DNA from: a candidate division WOR-3 bacterium
GTDB lineage: Bacteria > Hydrothermota > Tepidihabitantia > Tepidihabitantales > DTDR01
Length of the DNA stretch: 26,138 nt
Assembly: GCA_039801885.1 (NCBI GenBank)
Contig: JBDRVN010000018.1
Span: forward strand, 2,961-29,098
Reading direction: 5' to 3'
Of the stretch, positions 7,198 through 25,361 are shown piece by piece. The notes under the pieces are model-generated. The model was not told the origin of the DNA. It was given only the letters and a program-made list of their open reading frames with translations, and did not search any database. The translations under genes and the position numbers were made by a program. The stretch's first letter is position 1. The number at the start of each line of letters is the position of its first letter.

Positions 7198-7909
7198 GAA
7201 AATTCCAATAATTTTCTGATGAGATATTTTGATTAATTATTATTGAAAAGATATATTTTTTATTTTTCTTAAAATAATAACCGCTTAAAGCACGAACATT
7301 TTTCAAATAACCGGTTTTAGCAATTATTTTGTTTTGATAATTTAATAACCTTCTTCTTAAAGTCCCTCTTTTCCCACTCACTGCTAAACTATTTAAAAAT
7401 TCTTTCTGGTGGGACGAAAAATAAAGATAAATCAAAAGGTTTATTAAAGTATTGGTAGTCAAACGATTTTTTTTAGAACAACCACTGCCATCAAAAATTT
7501 TTAAGCCTTCAATCGATATTTTTCTTTCTCTCAAAAATCCTTTAATAACTTCTTTACTATTTCTTTTCTTATATTGGCCAATCAAATAAAAAAGCGAATT
7601 GGCTAATTTATTATCGCTTTTGCTATTCAACTCTAATAAGATTCGTTTTTTATAATAGATCTTGCCTTTTTTATATCTCTTTAAATAATTTAAAAAATTT
7701 TTATCACAATTTTCCAAGAGATAACTGCTGATAAGAAGTTTTAAATTAGAAGCAGGAATAAGGGGTTTATTTTTATTGTAGGTATAAATAAATTTCTTCT
7801 CATCTATTGAATAAATACAAATACTAATTTTGTTAGGATTTAAACAGTAATTTTTCATTAAATTTTTTATTTCTAAATTTAGATTGATTAAAATAAAAAG
7901 AAAAAACAT
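7172..7909 (-). CDS. D-Ala-D-Ala carboxypeptidase/endopeptidase, S13 (PBP4/DacB-like), short form
   Basis: PASNLK (SxxK), SDN (SxN), DGSG.S..NRLT, SLAVSG..GTL..R, AKTG and ALSGY motifs. Confidence 0.85.
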   Translation of the reverse strand: MFFLFILINLNLEIKNLMKNYCLNPNKISICIYSIDEKKFIYTYNKNKPLIPASNLKLLISSYLLENCDKNFLNYLKRYKKGKIYYKKRILLELNSKSDNKLANSLFYLIGQYKKRNSKEVIKGFLRERKISIEGLKIFDGSGCSKKNRLTTNTLINLLIYLYFSSHQKEFLNSLAVSGKRGTLRRRLLNYQNKIIAKTGYLKNVRALSGYYFKKNKKYIFSIIINQNISSENYWNFLNDFFALL

Positions 7910-7912
7910 TTA

Positions 7913-9256
7913 TTATTTTAAAATAAAATAAGCGATAGCAAAATAGATTGCTAAACCAGTGAAGTCTAAAATTGTTGTGAGCACTGGGCTACTAATTACT
8001 GCTGGGTCTTGTTTTAATTTAGTTAAAATTATGGGCAAAATGGTGCCAATCAAATTTGCCCAAACACAAATTATTAAAACGGCTAATCCGACAACAAAAC
8101 TAATTCTTATATCTTTTCGCAATAAAAAACTATAACCAAATAACAAAAAAAATAAGCCGCAACCTAAAAGAAGTCCTACCAAAAGTTCTTTGCGAACAAT
8201 TTCCCACCATTTTTTAAAATCCAATTCTCCTAAAGCAATTGCCCTAACTATTAAAGTGGCTGATTGGGAACTTGTATTGCCACCGGTATCAATCAGGACC
8301 GGAATAAAGAAACTTAAAGCGATAATCTTACTTAAAAGATTTTCAAAAGAAGCAATTATTGAACTTGATAAAAAACCCGCTACTGCCAAAAGGGAAAGCC
8401 AAACAATCCTTTTCTTAAAAAGAGAAATTATTGATGTTGCAGTATAACTAAATTTTAAAGGGATAACACCTGCTCTTTTGTGCAAATCTTCAGTTGCTTC
8501 TTCTTCATAAACATCTAAAATATCATCCACCGTAACAATTCCTAATAAAATATTTCTTTTATCCACAACCGGCAAGGCAATCAAATCGTATCTCCGCATC
8601 ATTTTTGCTGCTTCCTCTTGGTCTTGGTAGACATTTATCGCCATAAAATCTTTCTCCATAATTTCCGAGATTCTTTGTAATGGTTCAGCCAATACCAATC
8701 GTCTTAAATGGACTTCGCCAATCAATTTGCCTTCATCATCAACAACATATAAAATATTAAGGGTCTCCGCATCCTTACCAAATTTTCTAATATGTTCTAA
8801 ACTATATTTTATTGTCCAATGCTCTTTAATTTTTATATAGTCCGGAGTCATCAAACGACCAACCGAATCCTTTGGATAGCCAAGCAACTCTAAGGCTTCC
8901 TTCCTTTCTTCCGGTGGTAAGAGGCTAATTAATTGAGAAACTACTTCGCCGGGTAGTTCTTCAAATATTTCCGTTCGGTCATCCGGTGGGACCTCTAAAA
9001 GAATCTCTTTTATCTTTTCATTAGATAAATTTTTAACAAGACGGGCTTGAACATCTCTTTCTAATTCTACAAAAACCTCCGCCGCTAATTGGGTAGGTAA
9101 AAGGCGAAAAAGAATTAACCTTTCTTCATCATTTAAACTTTCTAAAAGGTCAGCAATATCCGGTGGTGACCACATAGAAATCAATTCTTTTAATACCCGC
9201 CAATCCTTATTCCTTATCGCTTCTTCAATTTCTGGTTTTAAAAGCTCCCTTAACAT
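7913..9256 (-). CDS. mgtE: Magnesium transporter MgtE
   Basis: MgtE N domain, CBS pair (GRLMTPDY, ALPVVD...LLGIVTVDD) and TM domain (FIPVLIDTGGN, DPAVISSPVLTTILD). Confidence 0.95.
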   Translation of the reverse strand: MLRELLKPEIEEAIRNKDWRVLKELISMWSPPDIADLLESLNDEERLILFRLLPTQLAAEVFVELERDVQARLVKNLSNEKIKEILLEVPPDDRTEIFEELPGEVVSQLISLLPPEERKEALELLGYPKDSVGRLMTPDYIKIKEHWTIKYSLEHIRKFGKDAETLNILYVVDDEGKLIGEVHLRRLVLAEPLQRISEIMEKDFMAINVYQDQEEAAKMMRRYDLIALPVVDKRNILLGIVTVDDILDVYEEEATEDLHKRAGVIPLKFSYTATSIISLFKKRIVWLSLLAVAGFLSSSIIASFENLLSKIIALSFFIPVLIDTGGNTSSQSATLIVRAIALGELDFKKWWEIVRKELLVGLLLGCGLFFLLFGYSFLLRKDIRISFVVGLAVLIICVWANLIGTILPIILTKLKQDPAVISSPVLTTILDFTGLAIYFAIAYFILK

Positions 9257-9319: not shown

Positions 9320-10498
9320 CTACAAGCCAATATCGGCTGGTGCCCGGCCAAGTTCGTGAAGAAGATTAATTATTTCCTTTATTTTTTTGTTGGCATCTTC
9401 ACCAACGCCATCCCGATTTGGATAGATTTCGTATAAGGTCGCATAACCTTTTGGTGTCAAATTAATCATTAAAGAGTTAGCACCGGCTAACAAACCTTTT
9501 CTTAAACCATCTTTTTTATCTAATGTCTGCATTGCGGTGGTAACAAGAATTTTACTATTGGGATAAAGAATTCTTGCTTGGGCAATAGTATCTAAAATCT
9601 TTTCCATCGGTGGTGGGAAGGAATCTTTTAAAGGTGTATCCGGATGAGGAATAAAAGGACCGAAAGAAAACATTTCGGCACAAAGTTCATTAGTTAAAGC
9701 AAGATTGTTTAAAATATCTTCTTCTTCCTCGCCGGGTAAACCGATTAGAAAACCGGTCATTATCAAATAACCGATATTTTTTAACTCTTTGATTAAATTA
9801 ATCCTATCCTCCAATTTCTTACCCGGTCGCATCTTTTCATAAACTTTTCTATTACCGGTTTCAAATCTCAAAAGTACTCCGCGGGCACCCAACTTATAAA
9901 CTCTCTCAAAAATTTCAAGCTCTCGCTCACCGATGCTTAATATTAGCAAGCAAGGGCTTTCTTCCATTATTCTTTTTACAATATAAGACAATTTATCTAT
10001 ATCATAATATAAATCTTCACCCGATTGAAAAACCAGAGCCTTAAAATTTAATCTTTTTATGGCATAAAAGGCTAAATTTATTATCTCATCGGGGTCCATT
10101 CGATACCTTTTCAATTTTTTATTATCTTTTCTTAAACCACAATAAAGACAATTATTTTGACAGTAGTTGGAAAATTCAATTATTCCGTGAATGCAACAGG
10201 AATTATCGTGGTATTCCTGACGAATTCTATTGGCAATCTTATATAAATCTTTAGAAGGATAGATAACCCTTAAATCAATCTCTTTTAATTGATGAAAAAA
10301 TTCTTCCCACACTTTTAATGTCTCCCTTGCTTCTTCTTCGGGAATTTTTTGGATAACAAAACCACCTTGGGCATAAACATAATCACCAATCTTTAAATCA
10401 TAAAAATCGTTTCTTACTTTCTTGACAATGCCAAAATATTCAATCTTACAGATATTATTATTTATCTCAATAACCTTTCCGGGAATCGCATAACACAT
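9320..10498 (-). CDS. HypC/HupF domain fused to a HydE-like radical SAM protein
   Basis: Residues ~1-68 MCYAIPGKVIEI...IEYFG..KKV...LKIGDYVYAQGGFVIQKI.EEEARETL match the HypC pattern. The remainder has GIIEFSNYCQNNCLYCGLR, VFQSGED, LSIGE, LLRFET, GFLIGLPG, GPFIPHPDTPL, TTAM, AGAN..M.N and YEIYP as in HydE. Confidence 0.88.
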   Translation of the reverse strand: MCYAIPGKVIEINNNICKIEYFGIVKKVRNDFYDLKIGDYVYAQGGFVIQKIPEEEARETLKVWEEFFHQLKEIDLRVIYPSKDLYKIANRIRQEYHDNSCCIHGIIEFSNYCQNNCLYCGLRKDNKKLKRYRMDPDEIINLAFYAIKRLNFKALVFQSGEDLYYDIDKLSYIVKRIMEESPCLLILSIGERELEIFERVYKLGARGVLLRFETGNRKVYEKMRPGKKLEDRINLIKELKNIGYLIMTGFLIGLPGEEEEDILNNLALTNELCAEMFSFGPFIPHPDTPLKDSFPPPMEKILDTIAQARILYPNSKILVTTAMQTLDKKDGLRKGLLAGANSLMINLTPKGYATLYEIYPNRDGVGEDANKKIKEIINLLHELGRAPADIGL

Positions 10499-10510
10499 AT
10501 TTAAAATCTT

Positions 10511-11899
10511 TCAGAAATATAAATCCCTTTCTCCGTTCTTTATTTTTTCTATTCTTTTTATTGTCTCTTTTCTTATATTCTCGTTATCAATTTGATTGAG
10601 ATAATATTCAATTACTTCGTATCCTTTTTCATATATCTCTTTCTTACCATTAGTTTTAGCAAAATCTTCTAAATATTCAACGAAAGTTAGGATTCCGTTT
10701 GGACGACAAAACTTTTGAATCTCACCTGGTTTGGCGAGATCCATAAAGTCCTCACCAGTTCTTCCAACCCGATAACAAGCAGTACAGAAACTGGGAATTA
10801 ATTTATCTTTTAAAATATCATTAATAACCTCTTCTAAATTTCTTAAATCATAAATTTCAAATTGGGCTTCTTCTTTAGAAAAACTTTTATAACCACCAGG
10901 TGAAGTTTTTGAGCCAGCCGAGGTCTGAGATATTCCCAATTTAAAAGCAAGCTTTCTTATTTCTGGTCTTTCTCTTGTTGACAAAATCATTCCAGTATAA
11001 GGAACCGCTACTCTTAAAATCGCAATAATCTTTAAAAAATCTTTATCAGAAACCAAATATTCCGGTTGATAAGTTACTGTGGGAGCATTTCTAAACCTGG
11101 GAACAGAAATTGTGTGGGGACCGACACCTAAATATTTATCCATAAATTGTGCGTGGGAAACCAAAGAGATCACTTCAAATCGCCAGTCATAAAGTCCAAA
11201 AAGAACGCCAATTCCTAAATCATCAATACCCGCTTCAAAGGCTCTAATATGAGCAGTAATCTGTCTTTCATAATCATCCTTTGGTCCTTTATGTAATTTC
11301 TTATAAGTTTCATAATGATAGGTTTCTTGAAATAATTGATAAGTGCCAATTTTGGACTCTTTTAATTTCTTATAATTCTCCTTTGTTGTTGCCGAAATGT
11401 TAACATTTATTCTTCTAATATTTCCCTTTTCAGTTTTCACTGAATAAATTGTTTCAATTGCGGAAACGACATAATCAATTGGATTATTCACTGGGTCTTC
11501 ACCACATTCCAATAGTATTCTTTTATGACCCATCTCAATTATTCTTTTTGTCTCTTCTTTTATCTCATCTAAATTTAACTTTCTTCTTTTCATTGGATTT
11601 CTAATATGGAAATTACAATACTCACAATCATTAACACAGAAATCAGAAATATATAAAGGAGCAAAAAAGACCAATCTTTCACCATAAATCTCTTCTTTTA
11701 TCTTTCCGGCAATCTTAAAAAGTTCATCAATAAGTTCTTTATCTTTCAAATTGGTTAAATAACCCACCTCTTCTAAGGAGAGCCCTTTCTTCTCTTTTGC
11801 CTTATCGAAGATTAATTCAATAGTTTTCTTATCGGGATTTTTCGTATTCTCTAAAATTTCAAAAATTTTTTCTTCGTTACAAATTTCAATAATTTTCAT
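10511..11899 (-). CDS. hydG: [FeFe]-hydrogenase H-cluster radical SAM maturase HydG
   Basis: FAPLYISDFCVNDCEYC, YQLFQETY, GVGPHTISVPR (dangler-Fe His) and C-terminal CTAC-x22-C auxiliary cluster motif, which ThiH lacks. Ends GERDLYF. Confidence 0.93.
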   Translation of the reverse strand: MKIIEICNEEKIFEILENTKNPDKKTIELIFDKAKEKKGLSLEEVGYLTNLKDKELIDELFKIAGKIKEEIYGERLVFFAPLYISDFCVNDCEYCNFHIRNPMKRRKLNLDEIKEETKRIIEMGHKRILLECGEDPVNNPIDYVVSAIETIYSVKTEKGNIRRINVNISATTKENYKKLKESKIGTYQLFQETYHYETYKKLHKGPKDDYERQITAHIRAFEAGIDDLGIGVLFGLYDWRFEVISLVSHAQFMDKYLGVGPHTISVPRFRNAPTVTYQPEYLVSDKDFLKIIAILRVAVPYTGMILSTRERPEIRKLAFKLGISQTSAGSKTSPGGYKSFSKEEAQFEIYDLRNLEEVINDILKDKLIPSFCTACYRVGRTGEDFMDLAKPGEIQKFCRPNGILTFVEYLEDFAKTNGKKEIYEKGYEVIEYYLNQIDNENIRKETIKRIEKIKNGERDLYF

Positions 11900-11907
11900 T
11901 AACTTAA

Positions 11908-11936
11908 ATTATAATCCCTATTTATTATAAAATCAA
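11908..11936 (-). promoter_or_regulatory. sigma70 promoter TTGATT-17-TATAAT for the hydG operon
   Basis: Consensus -10 ends 8 nt before ATG 11899 and there is no SD. Confidence 0.6.
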
Positions 11937-11985: not shown

Positions 11986-12525
11986 GTGAAGAGGATTTTA
12001 GATAAAATTTATTGGCTGTTTAATATAATCTTTTTAAAGAAATATGAAGGCTATTTGGATATAGAGACAACAAATTTGGAAACAGAAAAAGGCGAAATAA
12101 CGGTAATTGGTTTTGGTATTGATAAAGGTAAAAAATTTGAATTTATCCAACTTATTAATAATGAGATAACTACTGATAAACTAATTAAAATTATAAAGAA
12201 AATAAAAATCCTTTATACTTATAACGGCACAGATTTTGATTTAAAATTTATCAAAAAGAAACTTAATATTGATATAGAAAAATATTGTATCCACAAAGAC
12301 CTAATGAATGAATGTCATCAGAGAAACCTGTATGGTGGTTTAAAACAGGTAGAAAAGAAATTAGGTATTGAAAGGAAACTAAAAGATATAAATGGGTTTG
12401 CTGCGGTGAAACTATGGGAAAGATATAAAAATCTTGGTGATAAAAAGGCGTTAGAAACTTTATTAGAATATAATCGGGAAGATGTACTTAATTTAAAAAT
12501 TTTAAAAGAAAAATTGGAGATTTGA
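11986..12525 (+). CDS. RNase H-like (RNase_H_2/YprB-type, DEDD-like) exonuclease
   Basis: YLDIETT, TYNG.DFDL, H.DL, GGLK.VEK.LGI.R and LLEYNREDV.NL motifs. Confidence 0.85.
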   Translation: MKRILDKIYWLFNIIFLKKYEGYLDIETTNLETEKGEITVIGFGIDKGKKFEFIQLINNEITTDKLIKIIKKIKILYTYNGTDFDLKFIKKKLNIDIEKYCIHKDLMNECHQRNLYGGLKQVEKKLGIERKLKDINGFAAVKLWERYKNLGDKKALETLLEYNREDVLNLKILKEKLEI

Positions 12526-12526
12526 T

Positions 12527-13849
12527 TTGTTAAGAAAAGATTTTTTCTTATTTCTCCTTTTTATATTAATCCGCTTTATCTTTTTCCTTCCTTTATTATC
12601 TAATGAAAGGGCAGTATTAGAAGCAATAAGTGATGCGAAAGAGTATTACAAACTTGCCCAAAATCTTACTTTATCTTTTAATTATGAAAGGGAAGGAAAT
12701 TTTGATACAAAAAGACCGCCCCTTTTTCCCTTTTTATTATCCTTCTTTTATCTTATTATTCCGAAACCTTATATTGGTTTTATCTTCTATCTTATCTTAT
12801 CAATAATTTTCTTATTAATCCTAAAAAAATATTGCGATAAAGAAAGTTTTTATCTCTTTGCCCTTTTCTTTATCTTATCACCCCAGATAAATTTTTATTC
12901 CCTTTTTCCAATTACCGATTTATTTTTTGGAATTATTCTTTTTTTGGGTTATTTCTTCTTAAAGAATAATAAAAATACCATCTCACTAATATTATTTTCC
13001 CTTCTGTCTTATATCAAACCGGTTGGTCTTCTCTTGCCACCTTTTTTAGCAATTCATCGCCTTATCAAAAAGAGAGCCAAAAAAGCCTTACTTTTTCTTT
13101 TCATTCCCTATCTTTCTACTCTTCCTTGGTCCTTTCTCATTTATAAAAAGATAAACTACTTTACTTTTTCTACTTTACCTTATATCAATTTCTTTTCTTA
13201 TTATCTACCTGTTGCTAAATCTTTAAAAGAGAGAATAAGTTATCAAAAGGCAAGGGAGCTAATGAATAGAGATTTAGAAGAGAAGTTAAAAGATAACTAT
13301 ACCAAAAAGGAGTATTGGCAGGCAATTAGAGATATATCTTTAAAAGAACTAAAAAAAGCACCCTTACATTTGCTCTCTTCTCATATCCTCTTTTCTTTTA
13401 ACACCTTAATCTCGCCCATCTCTTTTAAACCTTTATTAATCTATTTAAATAAAGAGATAGAAAAACCTATCCAACAGGAAGTCTTCTCTTCTATTTTAAA
13501 AGGGAAGATAATAGAAGGGATAAAAACTTTTCTTTTCGAACGGTTGATAAAAATTGGCTTTTTTGGTATTTTTCTTCTAATATATTCATCTATCTTCTTA
13601 ATTTTTCTTCTAATTTACTTTGTGAAAATAGTTATAAAAGATAAACCTTTATTAGAGTTATTAATTATATTACCTTTAATATTTTCCACTGGTGTTGTTG
13701 CTGAAGCAAGATATCGGCTCTTATTTGAAATTATCATCTATTTTTTAGTTGCCCAATTTATAATAACTTTCTTAAATCACCGAAGAGCAAACCAACAAAT
13801 AAATGATTTAGAAGGCAAAGGTATAGGGGGAGGGGGTATATACTTATAA
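12527..13849 (+). CDS. Polytopic membrane protein, GT-C/ArnT-like glycosyltransferase
   Basis: First TM followed by SDA.EY..LA.NL and RPPLFP, many TM segments, late ARYRL motif. The last ~25 residues look non-native. Confidence 0.65.
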   Translation: MLRKDFFLFLLFILIRFIFFLPLLSNERAVLEAISDAKEYYKLAQNLTLSFNYEREGNFDTKRPPLFPFLLSFFYLIIPKPYIGFIFYLILSIIFLLILKKYCDKESFYLFALFFILSPQINFYSLFPITDLFFGIILFLGYFFLKNNKNTISLILFSLLSYIKPVGLLLPPFLAIHRLIKKRAKKALLFLFIPYLSTLPWSFLIYKKINYFTFSTLPYINFFSYYLPVAKSLKERISYQKARELMNRDLEEKLKDNYTKKEYWQAIRDISLKELKKAPLHLLSSHILFSFNTLISPISFKPLLIYLNKEIEKPIQQEVFSSILKGKIIEGIKTFLFERLIKIGFFGIFLLIYSSIFLIFLLIYFVKIVIKDKPLLELLIILPLIFSTGVVAEARYRLLFEIIIYFLVAQFIITFLNHRRANQQINDLEGKGIGGGGIYL

Positions 13850-22264: not shown

Positions 22265-22282
22265 AAGTTTAAGAAAATAAAA

Positions 22283-22356
22283 TGGGCGAAACCCGATTTG
22301 AACGGGTGACCTCCTCCTTGTAAGGGAGGCGCTCTCGCCAACTGAGCTATTCGCCC
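22283..22356 (-). tRNA. tRNA-Val (TAC), CCA not encoded
   Basis: GGGCGAATAGCTCAGTTGGCGAGAGCGCCTCCCTTACAAGGAGGAGGTCACCCGTTCAAATCGGGTTTCGCCCA folds as a cloverleaf. Anticodon stem CCTCC/GGAGG, loop CT-TAC-AA. Confidence 0.95.
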
Positions 22357-22367
22357 ATTAGTTATAT

Positions 22368-25225: not shown

Positions 25226-25361
25226 AAGTTTAAGAAAATAAAATGGGCGAAACCCGATTTGAACGGGTGACCTCCTCCTTGTAAGGGAGGCGCTCTCGCC
25301 AACTGAGCTATTCGCCATTAATTATATATCATAATAAAATTTATAAAAATGTCAATAAGAA
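25197..25361. repeat. Direct repeat copy 2 (165 bp)
   Basis: See copy 1. Same orientation, offset 2961/2960 bp. Confidence 0.95.
25244..25317 (-). tRNA. Second tRNA-Val (TAC) copy missing one 5' G (possible pseudo-tRNA)
   Basis: Identical to copy 1 except that + strand TTCGCCATTA replaces TTCGCCCATTA, which breaks the 1-72 pair. Confidence 0.8.

Follow-up and report, generated by a model that had tools for sequence, protein, structure and literature searches.

The stretch of DNA analysed here, called the window, comprises 26,138 nucleotides (nt) of contig C18 of a candidate division WOR-3 genome (assembly G000; 1.56 Mb, 70 contigs; completeness 91%, contamination 0.03%), and it carries a compact operon in which hydG, a gene of [FeFe] hydrogenase maturation, precedes a gene that fuses hypC to hydE. 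The first gene, hydG (10511..11899, minus strand; 462 amino acids (aa)), encodes a predicted radical S-adenosylmethionine (SAM) tyrosine lyase, of the type that generates CO and CN- at a dangler iron, and the second, the hypC-hydE fusion gene (9320..10498, minus strand; 392 aa), encodes a protein with the Pfam domains PF01455, PF04055 and PF06968. The HypC domain occupies approximately residues 1-77 (10268..10498, minus strand), starting with Met-Cys2 and having Pro6, and the HydE-like radical SAM domain occupies residues 82-388 (9335..10255, minus strand), which include C113, C117 and C120 as well as the clade-specific C102 and H104. The fusion gene starts 12 nt downstream of hydG, and this spacer (10499..10510, minus strand), read directly from the sequence, is as given in a first-pass annotation of the window; it implies that hydG and the fusion gene are probably co-transcribed. 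The same annotation also assigned hydG its own promoter. The promoter-like site 5' of hydG (TTGATT-17-TATAAT; 11908..11936, minus strand) agrees with the consensus at 10 of 12 positions and is the best match in the region, but -35/-10-like sites occur there at chance level (15 counted vs 15.1 expected from shuffles), and the assignment is thus reduced to a mere consensus match.

By its sequence, the product of the window hydG is a full canonical HydG. It scores 536 bits with the HydG model TIGR03955 (cut-off 312.15), and it contains the CX3CX2C motif (residues 88-95), the GPHTISVPR stretch (260-268), whose GPH histidine we take to have a role in HydG, and the CxxC-x22-C motif of the auxiliary cluster (372-398). 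These stretches align with those of the solved HydG structure 4wcx, with which the protein shares a match of 517 bits over residues 5-462. Score and motifs therefore agree with the first-pass annotation, which had recognised a canonical HydG by the histidine of GPHTISVPR and the CxxC-x22-C motif. In the HydG tree, 14 of the 16 HydGs that have a fusion as partner fall in one clade with a support of 98, yet an alignment of 14 fusion-associated HydGs with 19 others shows no column that distinguishes the two groups at 85% conservation. As no residue sets them apart, the notion that fusion-associated HydGs have a specialised product site was dropped.

Both halves of the fusion protein can be assigned to known families. 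The N-terminal part matches Pfam HupF_HypC (PF01455) over residues 1-64 (63.6 bits; cut-off 28.5), the HypC model TIGR00074 over residues 1-77 (54.6 bits; cut-off 48) and the HypC structure 2z1c (50.5 bits). In HypC proteins the free N-terminal cysteine carries the iron, and this cysteine appears to be kept in the fusions, since C2, together with M1, I5 and P6, is invariant in the HypC domains of 44 fusions. The fused HypC departs from the norm of its family, that of a small free-standing partner of HypD, in being joined to a 310-aa enzyme in a genome in which HypD was not found. The C-terminal part scores 247.1 bits with the HydE model TIGR03956 over residues 82-384, just below the cut-off of 254.6, a score that a fusion from the sister family described below exceeds (268.3 bits); it matches the Thermotoga maritima HydE structure 7o1o with 238.9 bits and has an identity of 39-41% to that enzyme. 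An AlphaFold2 model of the fusion, built on the 44 fusions, has a predicted local distance difference test score of 92.3 and a predicted template modelling (TM) score of 0.91, and its best Foldseek match is again T. maritima HydE (3cix; E 7.6e-32, target TM 0.85). The three cysteines of the radical SAM CX3CX2C motif, C113, C117 and C120, are invariant among the fusions.

The fusion is not confined to the window. PF01455 and PF04055 are both present in all 120 homologues listed for it; the labels among these homologues include WOR-3, Elusimicrobiota, Omnitrophota and Desantisbacteria, and one with 91% identity is labelled candidate division WOR-3. The ESM Atlas holds five clusters with the HypC and HydE domain pair, and HypC-HydE-HydG triple fusions (P0122, 906 aa; P0134, 881 aa) turned up among the 1.84 billion cluster representatives that were searched. 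Another protein, P0156 (803 aa), joins HydE to HydG but has no HypC domain.

Both phylogeny and residues place the fused HydE outside the canonical, HydF-linked HydE. In a tree of 81 HydE domains (a quick IQ-TREE run without outgroup), one branch with a support of 100 parts 38 plain HydE domains from 43 rows of the fused type, and the plain side holds all the hydF-linked HydE. The 43 rows comprise 37 fused domains, the split pair L049, the 5'-truncated L064 and L065, and L067, L076 and L097. In the split form (L049:365-1726), a free 91-aa hypC lies directly 5' of a 363-aa hydE whose product falls within the fused clade. The hydG gene at L076:1-12380 has as its neighbour a fused-clade HydE in which no HypC domain was detected, and a group-3b-like [NiFe] hydrogenase lies ~8 kb away on the opposite strand. 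Ten canonical HydE residues are replaced in the fusion, including Arg by His104 and Arg by Gly207. C102 and H104 are present in 42/42 domains of the fused clade, at positions where canonical HydE has His (24/38) and Arg (37/38), respectively; F212 is likewise found in 42/42 and C101 in 32/42, and at position 207 the canonical Arg (37/38) is replaced in the fused clade, mostly by Gly (35/42). As a result, residues 101-104 of the fusion (window ~10187-10198, minus strand) read Cys-Cys-x-His where canonical HydE has Val-His-x-Arg, an arrangement that presumably resembles the Cys/His motif of HypD. In the first barrel strand, C102 and H104 are two residues apart (i and i+2), immediately before the cluster loop, which suggests that both may point into the cavity and form a new pair of metal ligands.

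What the operon may serve is indicated by the gene content of the genome. It encodes three [NiFe] large subunits in which the RxCGxC and DPCxxC motifs are intact and which belong, with group labels assigned from Pfam content, to a two-gene Mvh-like pair on contig C20 (G000:C20:7291-9701; large subunit 7291-8724), a four-gene group-3b-like operon on contig C14, and a 14-gene Mbh/Mrp-type group-4 complex, also on C14. Genes for hypB (278.8 bits), hypA (74.6 bits) and a HycI-family protease (60.4 bits) are present, and the late maturation steps, nickel insertion and C-terminal cleavage, are thus encoded. The hypB and hypA genes (G000:C3:49697-53064) are distant from all hydrogenase genes, and lie, on the same strand, upstream of a 790-aa radical-SAM-like open reading frame and an RNase E/G-like gene, these neighbours being named from a reading of the sequence. 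The first-pass annotation had noted that hydF, hydA and hypD are lacking near the operon; none of them was detected across the assembly either. HydA and HypD were not found over their cut-offs, and for HydF there were GTPase-domain matches only (best 91 bits); HypE was not found over its cut-off (best 117.5 vs 251.6 bits), and neither was HypF, for which the matches were limited to an acylphosphatase of 105 aa and a Kae1-like protein. A phmmer search of the 11,066 reading frames of the genome with reference proteins of related genomes gave the same absences. The only HypC domain of the genome is that of the fusion. Hence, the early steps that build Fe(CN)2CO are not encoded in this genome unless the hydG/hypC-hydE operon performs them.

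Whether these absences extend to relatives was examined in 201 genomes sampled from the same phylum, all of them metagenome assemblies, of which 38 contain HydE-like genes. Full-length fusions occur in four genomes of the window's genus, in family f1 (G000, G010, G051 and G056; completeness 91, 98, 97 and 96%), and a second form is present in three genomes of the sister family f3 (G061, G106 and G141; 96, 95 and 94%). The f3 form was recognised by Pfam on its loci; these fusions are 420-431 aa long and share no more than 39-40% identity with the window protein, the fusion gene precedes hydG, the reverse of the order in the window, and an Mvh-like [NiFe] hydrogenase lies ~6 kb away. In all seven fusion genomes hydG adjoins the fusion. 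The first-pass annotation had argued that genomes combining this pair with [NiFe] hydrogenases alone would strongly support a crossing of the two pathways, and that a constant company of hydF and hydA, with no association with hyp genes, would make the pair an ordinary split maturase set with an accessory domain. All seven pair-bearing genomes have a [NiFe] large subunit; HypD, free HypC and HydA were found in none of the seven (0/7 each), nor were HypE, HypF and HydF over their cut-offs (0/7 each), and HydG is hence accompanied in none of them by its expected partners HydF and HydA. Four control genomes that combine [NiFe] hydrogenases with a plain HydE (G041, G081, G123 and G076) have free HypC, HypD, HypE, HypF, HydF and HydA in every case (4/4).

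It should be considered whether the operon is an ordinary split [FeFe] maturase set, with hydF, hydA and the hyp genes hidden in the 9% of the genome that is unassembled and the HypC domain being a mere accessory. The assembly is indeed 91% complete and in 70 contigs, and ten other [NiFe]-positive genomes of the sample also show no HypD. However, six gene families are absent together in all seven fusion genomes, which are 91-98% complete; HydF and HydA were each found in 21 of the 22 plain-HydE genomes tested; and neither hydF nor hydA adjoins the fusion in any of 37 metagenome loci. We therefore regard this explanation as very improbable, and an assembly gap as nearly excluded. With respect to HypD, 149 of the 201 genomes encode a [NiFe] large subunit, HypD being present in 132 of these; the 17 without it include the seven fusion genomes. 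Two genomes of one genus (G009 and G035; 88% and 77% complete) have [NiFe] large subunits and gave neither HypD nor a HydE-like gene, a pattern that may reflect incompleteness or yet another arrangement.

The metagenome loci provide a second view of the gene neighbourhood. A scan of genome contigs with a single protein as query returned only one close relative; with 15 aligned fusions as query, 80 metagenome loci were obtained, whose reading frames were scored by phmmer against reference proteins. After the 5'-truncated L064 and L065 had been set aside, 37 fused loci were compared with 41 plain-hydE loci, the latter being a conservative group as its members L049, L067, L076 and L097 fall in the fused clade. 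A hydG neighbour is about equally common in the two groups (18/37 fused vs 21/41 plain). Genes for [NiFe] large or small subunits were found in 14/37 fused loci vs 1/41 plain loci (L076), and hypA or hypB in 3/37 (L037, L041 and L066) vs 0/41. Conversely, hydF was present at 0/37 fused vs 12/41 plain loci and hydA at 0/37 vs 2/41; hypD, hypE or hypF was found in neither group (0/37 and 0/41). Among loci of at least 7 kb, 12 of the 19 fused loci have [NiFe] genes and none has hydF, compared with one and ten, respectively, of the 25 plain loci. At L038, on a 108-kb contig, an HdrA-like gene, mvhD, the small subunit gene, the large subunit gene, a HycI protease gene, hydG and hypC-hydE follow each other on one strand.

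These neighbourhoods bear on another explanation, according to which the pair builds an Fe-carbonyl cofactor for some other enzyme, the [NiFe] hydrogenases being matured by an unrelated system or being inactive. The window operon is unlinked to hydrogenase genes and the HydE-like domain is remodelled, as would be expected in that case. Against it, the fusion contains the only HypC domain of the genome, it lies in [NiFe] operons at 14 of the 37 loci and beside hypA or hypB at three of them, and the large subunits keep all their metal ligands in a genome that retains hypA, hypB and the protease gene, which makes another target for the pair highly unlikely. The active-site motifs of Mvh-like large subunits are identical between seven fusion-context sequences (six genomes and L038) and those of six HypCDEF genomes, a comparison from which G081 was left out because its longest reading frame proved to be another gene; the pocket, judged by its residues, therefore shows no sign of a different ligand set. 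The only fixed difference concerns residue 161 in GGK(A/P)THP, which is Ala in 7/7 fusion-context and Pro in 6/6 HypCDEF sequences and is confounded with phylogeny.

If the target is a [NiFe] enzyme, the module might still provide the CO ligand alone, with cyanide and scaffold coming from unrecognised analogues of HypD, HypE and HypF. To our knowledge, it is an open question where anaerobes obtain the CO for [NiFe] maturation, which leaves room for such a role, and the window's genome contains an aminoimidazole ribonucleotide (AIR)-synthase-type paralogue of HypE (G000:C1:2479-3495; 117.5 bits). This paralogue was rejected as HypE: it falls short of the cut-off (251.6 bits), it ends in FSVL without the C-terminal cysteine, and it occurs in the HypCDEF-positive control genomes too. 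Moreover, neither profiles nor phmmer found HypD-like or HypF-like genes in G000, and HydG yields cyanide besides CO. A role limited to CO thus appears unlikely.

Taken together, these observations indicate that HydG and the HypC-HydE fusion probably constitute a [NiFe] maturation module that replaces HypC, HypD, HypE and HypF in this organism. The presence of [NiFe] large subunits without HydF, HydA, HypD, HypE and HypF in all seven fusion genomes supports the cross-wired Fe-carbonyl/cyanide module that the first-pass annotation had conceived. Its more specific suggestion, that HypC may replace HydF within a two-gene module, holds for the two-gene module and not for the stand-in: what the pair would replace are HypC, HypD, HypE and HypF of the [NiFe] pathway.

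As to how the module may work, we lean somewhat towards a complete tyrosine-derived route to Fe(CN)2CO that is free of HypD, HypE and HypF and in which the remodelled HydE domain serves as a HypD-like scaffold through its Cys-x-His residues. HydG cleaves tyrosine and assembles, at the dangler iron, an Fe(CO)x(CN)y-cysteine unit; the window HydG, in which all HydG motifs are present, would perform this first step. Starting from the observed gene content, linkage and conserved residues, we infer the subsequent hand-over and the role of C102/H104. In a second step, the HydE-like domain would take the HydG unit and free a mononuclear Fe-carbonyl-cyanide fragment by radical SAM chemistry; Cys102 and His104 may hold this fragment, as does the cysteine of HypD, and the domain would hand it over instead of letting two units dimerise. 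In a third step, suggested by the known role of HypC, the fragment would pass to Cys2 of the attached HypC domain and then into the apo large subunits, the fused HypC domain thus being the putative carrier to the [NiFe] large subunit. Finally, HypA and HypB would insert nickel and the HycI-type protease would trim the C-terminus, the genes for both of these late activities being present. According to PMC8855341, HydG forms an Fe(CO)(CN)-cysteine complex and then [Fe(CN)(CO)2(cysteinate)]-, and a second cyanide is left over, which triggers product release; this product is the substrate of HydE, which brings its iron to the Fe(I) state by reduction and breaks the C-S bond of the cysteine. One may speculate that the extra cyanide released by HydG could become the second CN of Fe(CN)2CO.

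Several points weigh against this module and its mechanism. The HydG product described in PMC8855341 has two CO and one CN, the [NiFe] site needs one CO and two CN, and no step accounts for the conversion that would have to be assumed. As the HydE domain of the window protein scores below the family cut-off, its chemistry may also differ from that of HydE. The window operon adjoins no hydrogenase gene. With regard to the comparative data, the seven fusion genomes represent two lineages and not seven independent events, the genome-wide absences were established within one phylum, and all the genomes used are metagenome assemblies. Ten further [NiFe] genomes, 75-91% complete, are without HypD, fusion or HydE-like gene, and HypD is accordingly missed in ~7% of the non-fusion [NiFe] genomes (10/142); this miss rate fails to explain the joint loss of four gene families in seven more complete genomes. 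The support for the module is comparative throughout.

The proposed module shares features with three known systems. It resembles [FeFe] hydrogenase maturation by HydE and HydG in that its HydG is canonical and the C-terminal domain of the fusion has the HydE fold and radical SAM motif. It differs in that HydF and the target HydA were not found in any of the seven fusion genomes, and in that the fused HydE forms a separate clade, with C102/H104 for the canonical His/Arg, and is joined to HypC. The canonical HypA-F and endopeptidase pathway of Escherichia coli and Thermococcus kodakarensis would act on the same targets and likewise has hypA, hypB, a HycI-type protease and a HypC with Cys2 and Pro6; in the fusion genomes, however, HypD, HypE and HypF were not found, HypC exists solely as the N-terminus of a radical SAM enzyme, and tyrosine would take the place of carbamoyl phosphate as the source of the ligands. 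A more distant likeness exists to HmdB/HcgA of the iron-guanylylpyridinol cofactor of [Fe]-hydrogenase, kin within the BioB/HydE group that also serve an Fe-carbonyl cofactor of a hydrogenase, but the fusion scores only 83.5 bits with TIGR03957, far below the 320.9 bits of the cut-off, an Hmd context is lacking, and HmdB/HcgA have no HypC fusion. A full-text literature search, with subscription journals mostly outside its reach, gave no account of the fusion or of a HydG serving [NiFe] enzymes, and passages of PMC9431212 and PMC11216029 do not describe the fusion. Set beside three [NiFe] hydrogenases in a genome in which HypD, HypE and HypF were not found, the operon points to an undescribed second route to their Fe-CO-cyanide centre.

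The operon is flanked by mgtE (7913-9256; 436 bits) and, divergently, by a gene for an RNase_H_2/RecB-like nuclease (11986-12525; profile matches), so that profile searches bear out both of the flanking genes named by the first-pass annotation. Further along, the window encodes a 440-aa multi-pass membrane protein (12527-13849) with no Pfam match at E 0.01, and two tRNA-Val(TAC) genes on the minus strand, ~3 kb apart (22282-22357 and 25244-25317). Hot-spring metagenome runs contain the window DNA, three runs of a single study showing shares of 0.63-0.92. In the metatranscriptome run X5, short contigs match positions 9338-9495 (one difference) and 10543-10762 (no differences), within the fusion gene and hydG, respectively; as they may stem from DNA carry-over, these matches are not taken as a sign of expression.

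If the replacement of HypC, HypD, HypE and HypF by this module proves true, it would overturn the view that these four proteins are universally needed for [NiFe] hydrogenases, and it would reveal one way in which anaerobes obtain the CO ligand. It would also link the two hydrogenase maturation systems through a module borrowed from the [FeFe] pathway, and provide a two-gene set for the heterologous production of [NiFe] enzymes. Metagenomic surveys, in which the presence of hydE and hydG currently serves to indicate [FeFe] hydrogenases, as in the methods of PMC11216029, would have to read these genes differently. Because nothing else found in them could provide the cofactor, the fusion genomes make the idea that the HypCDEF proteins can be replaced directly testable.

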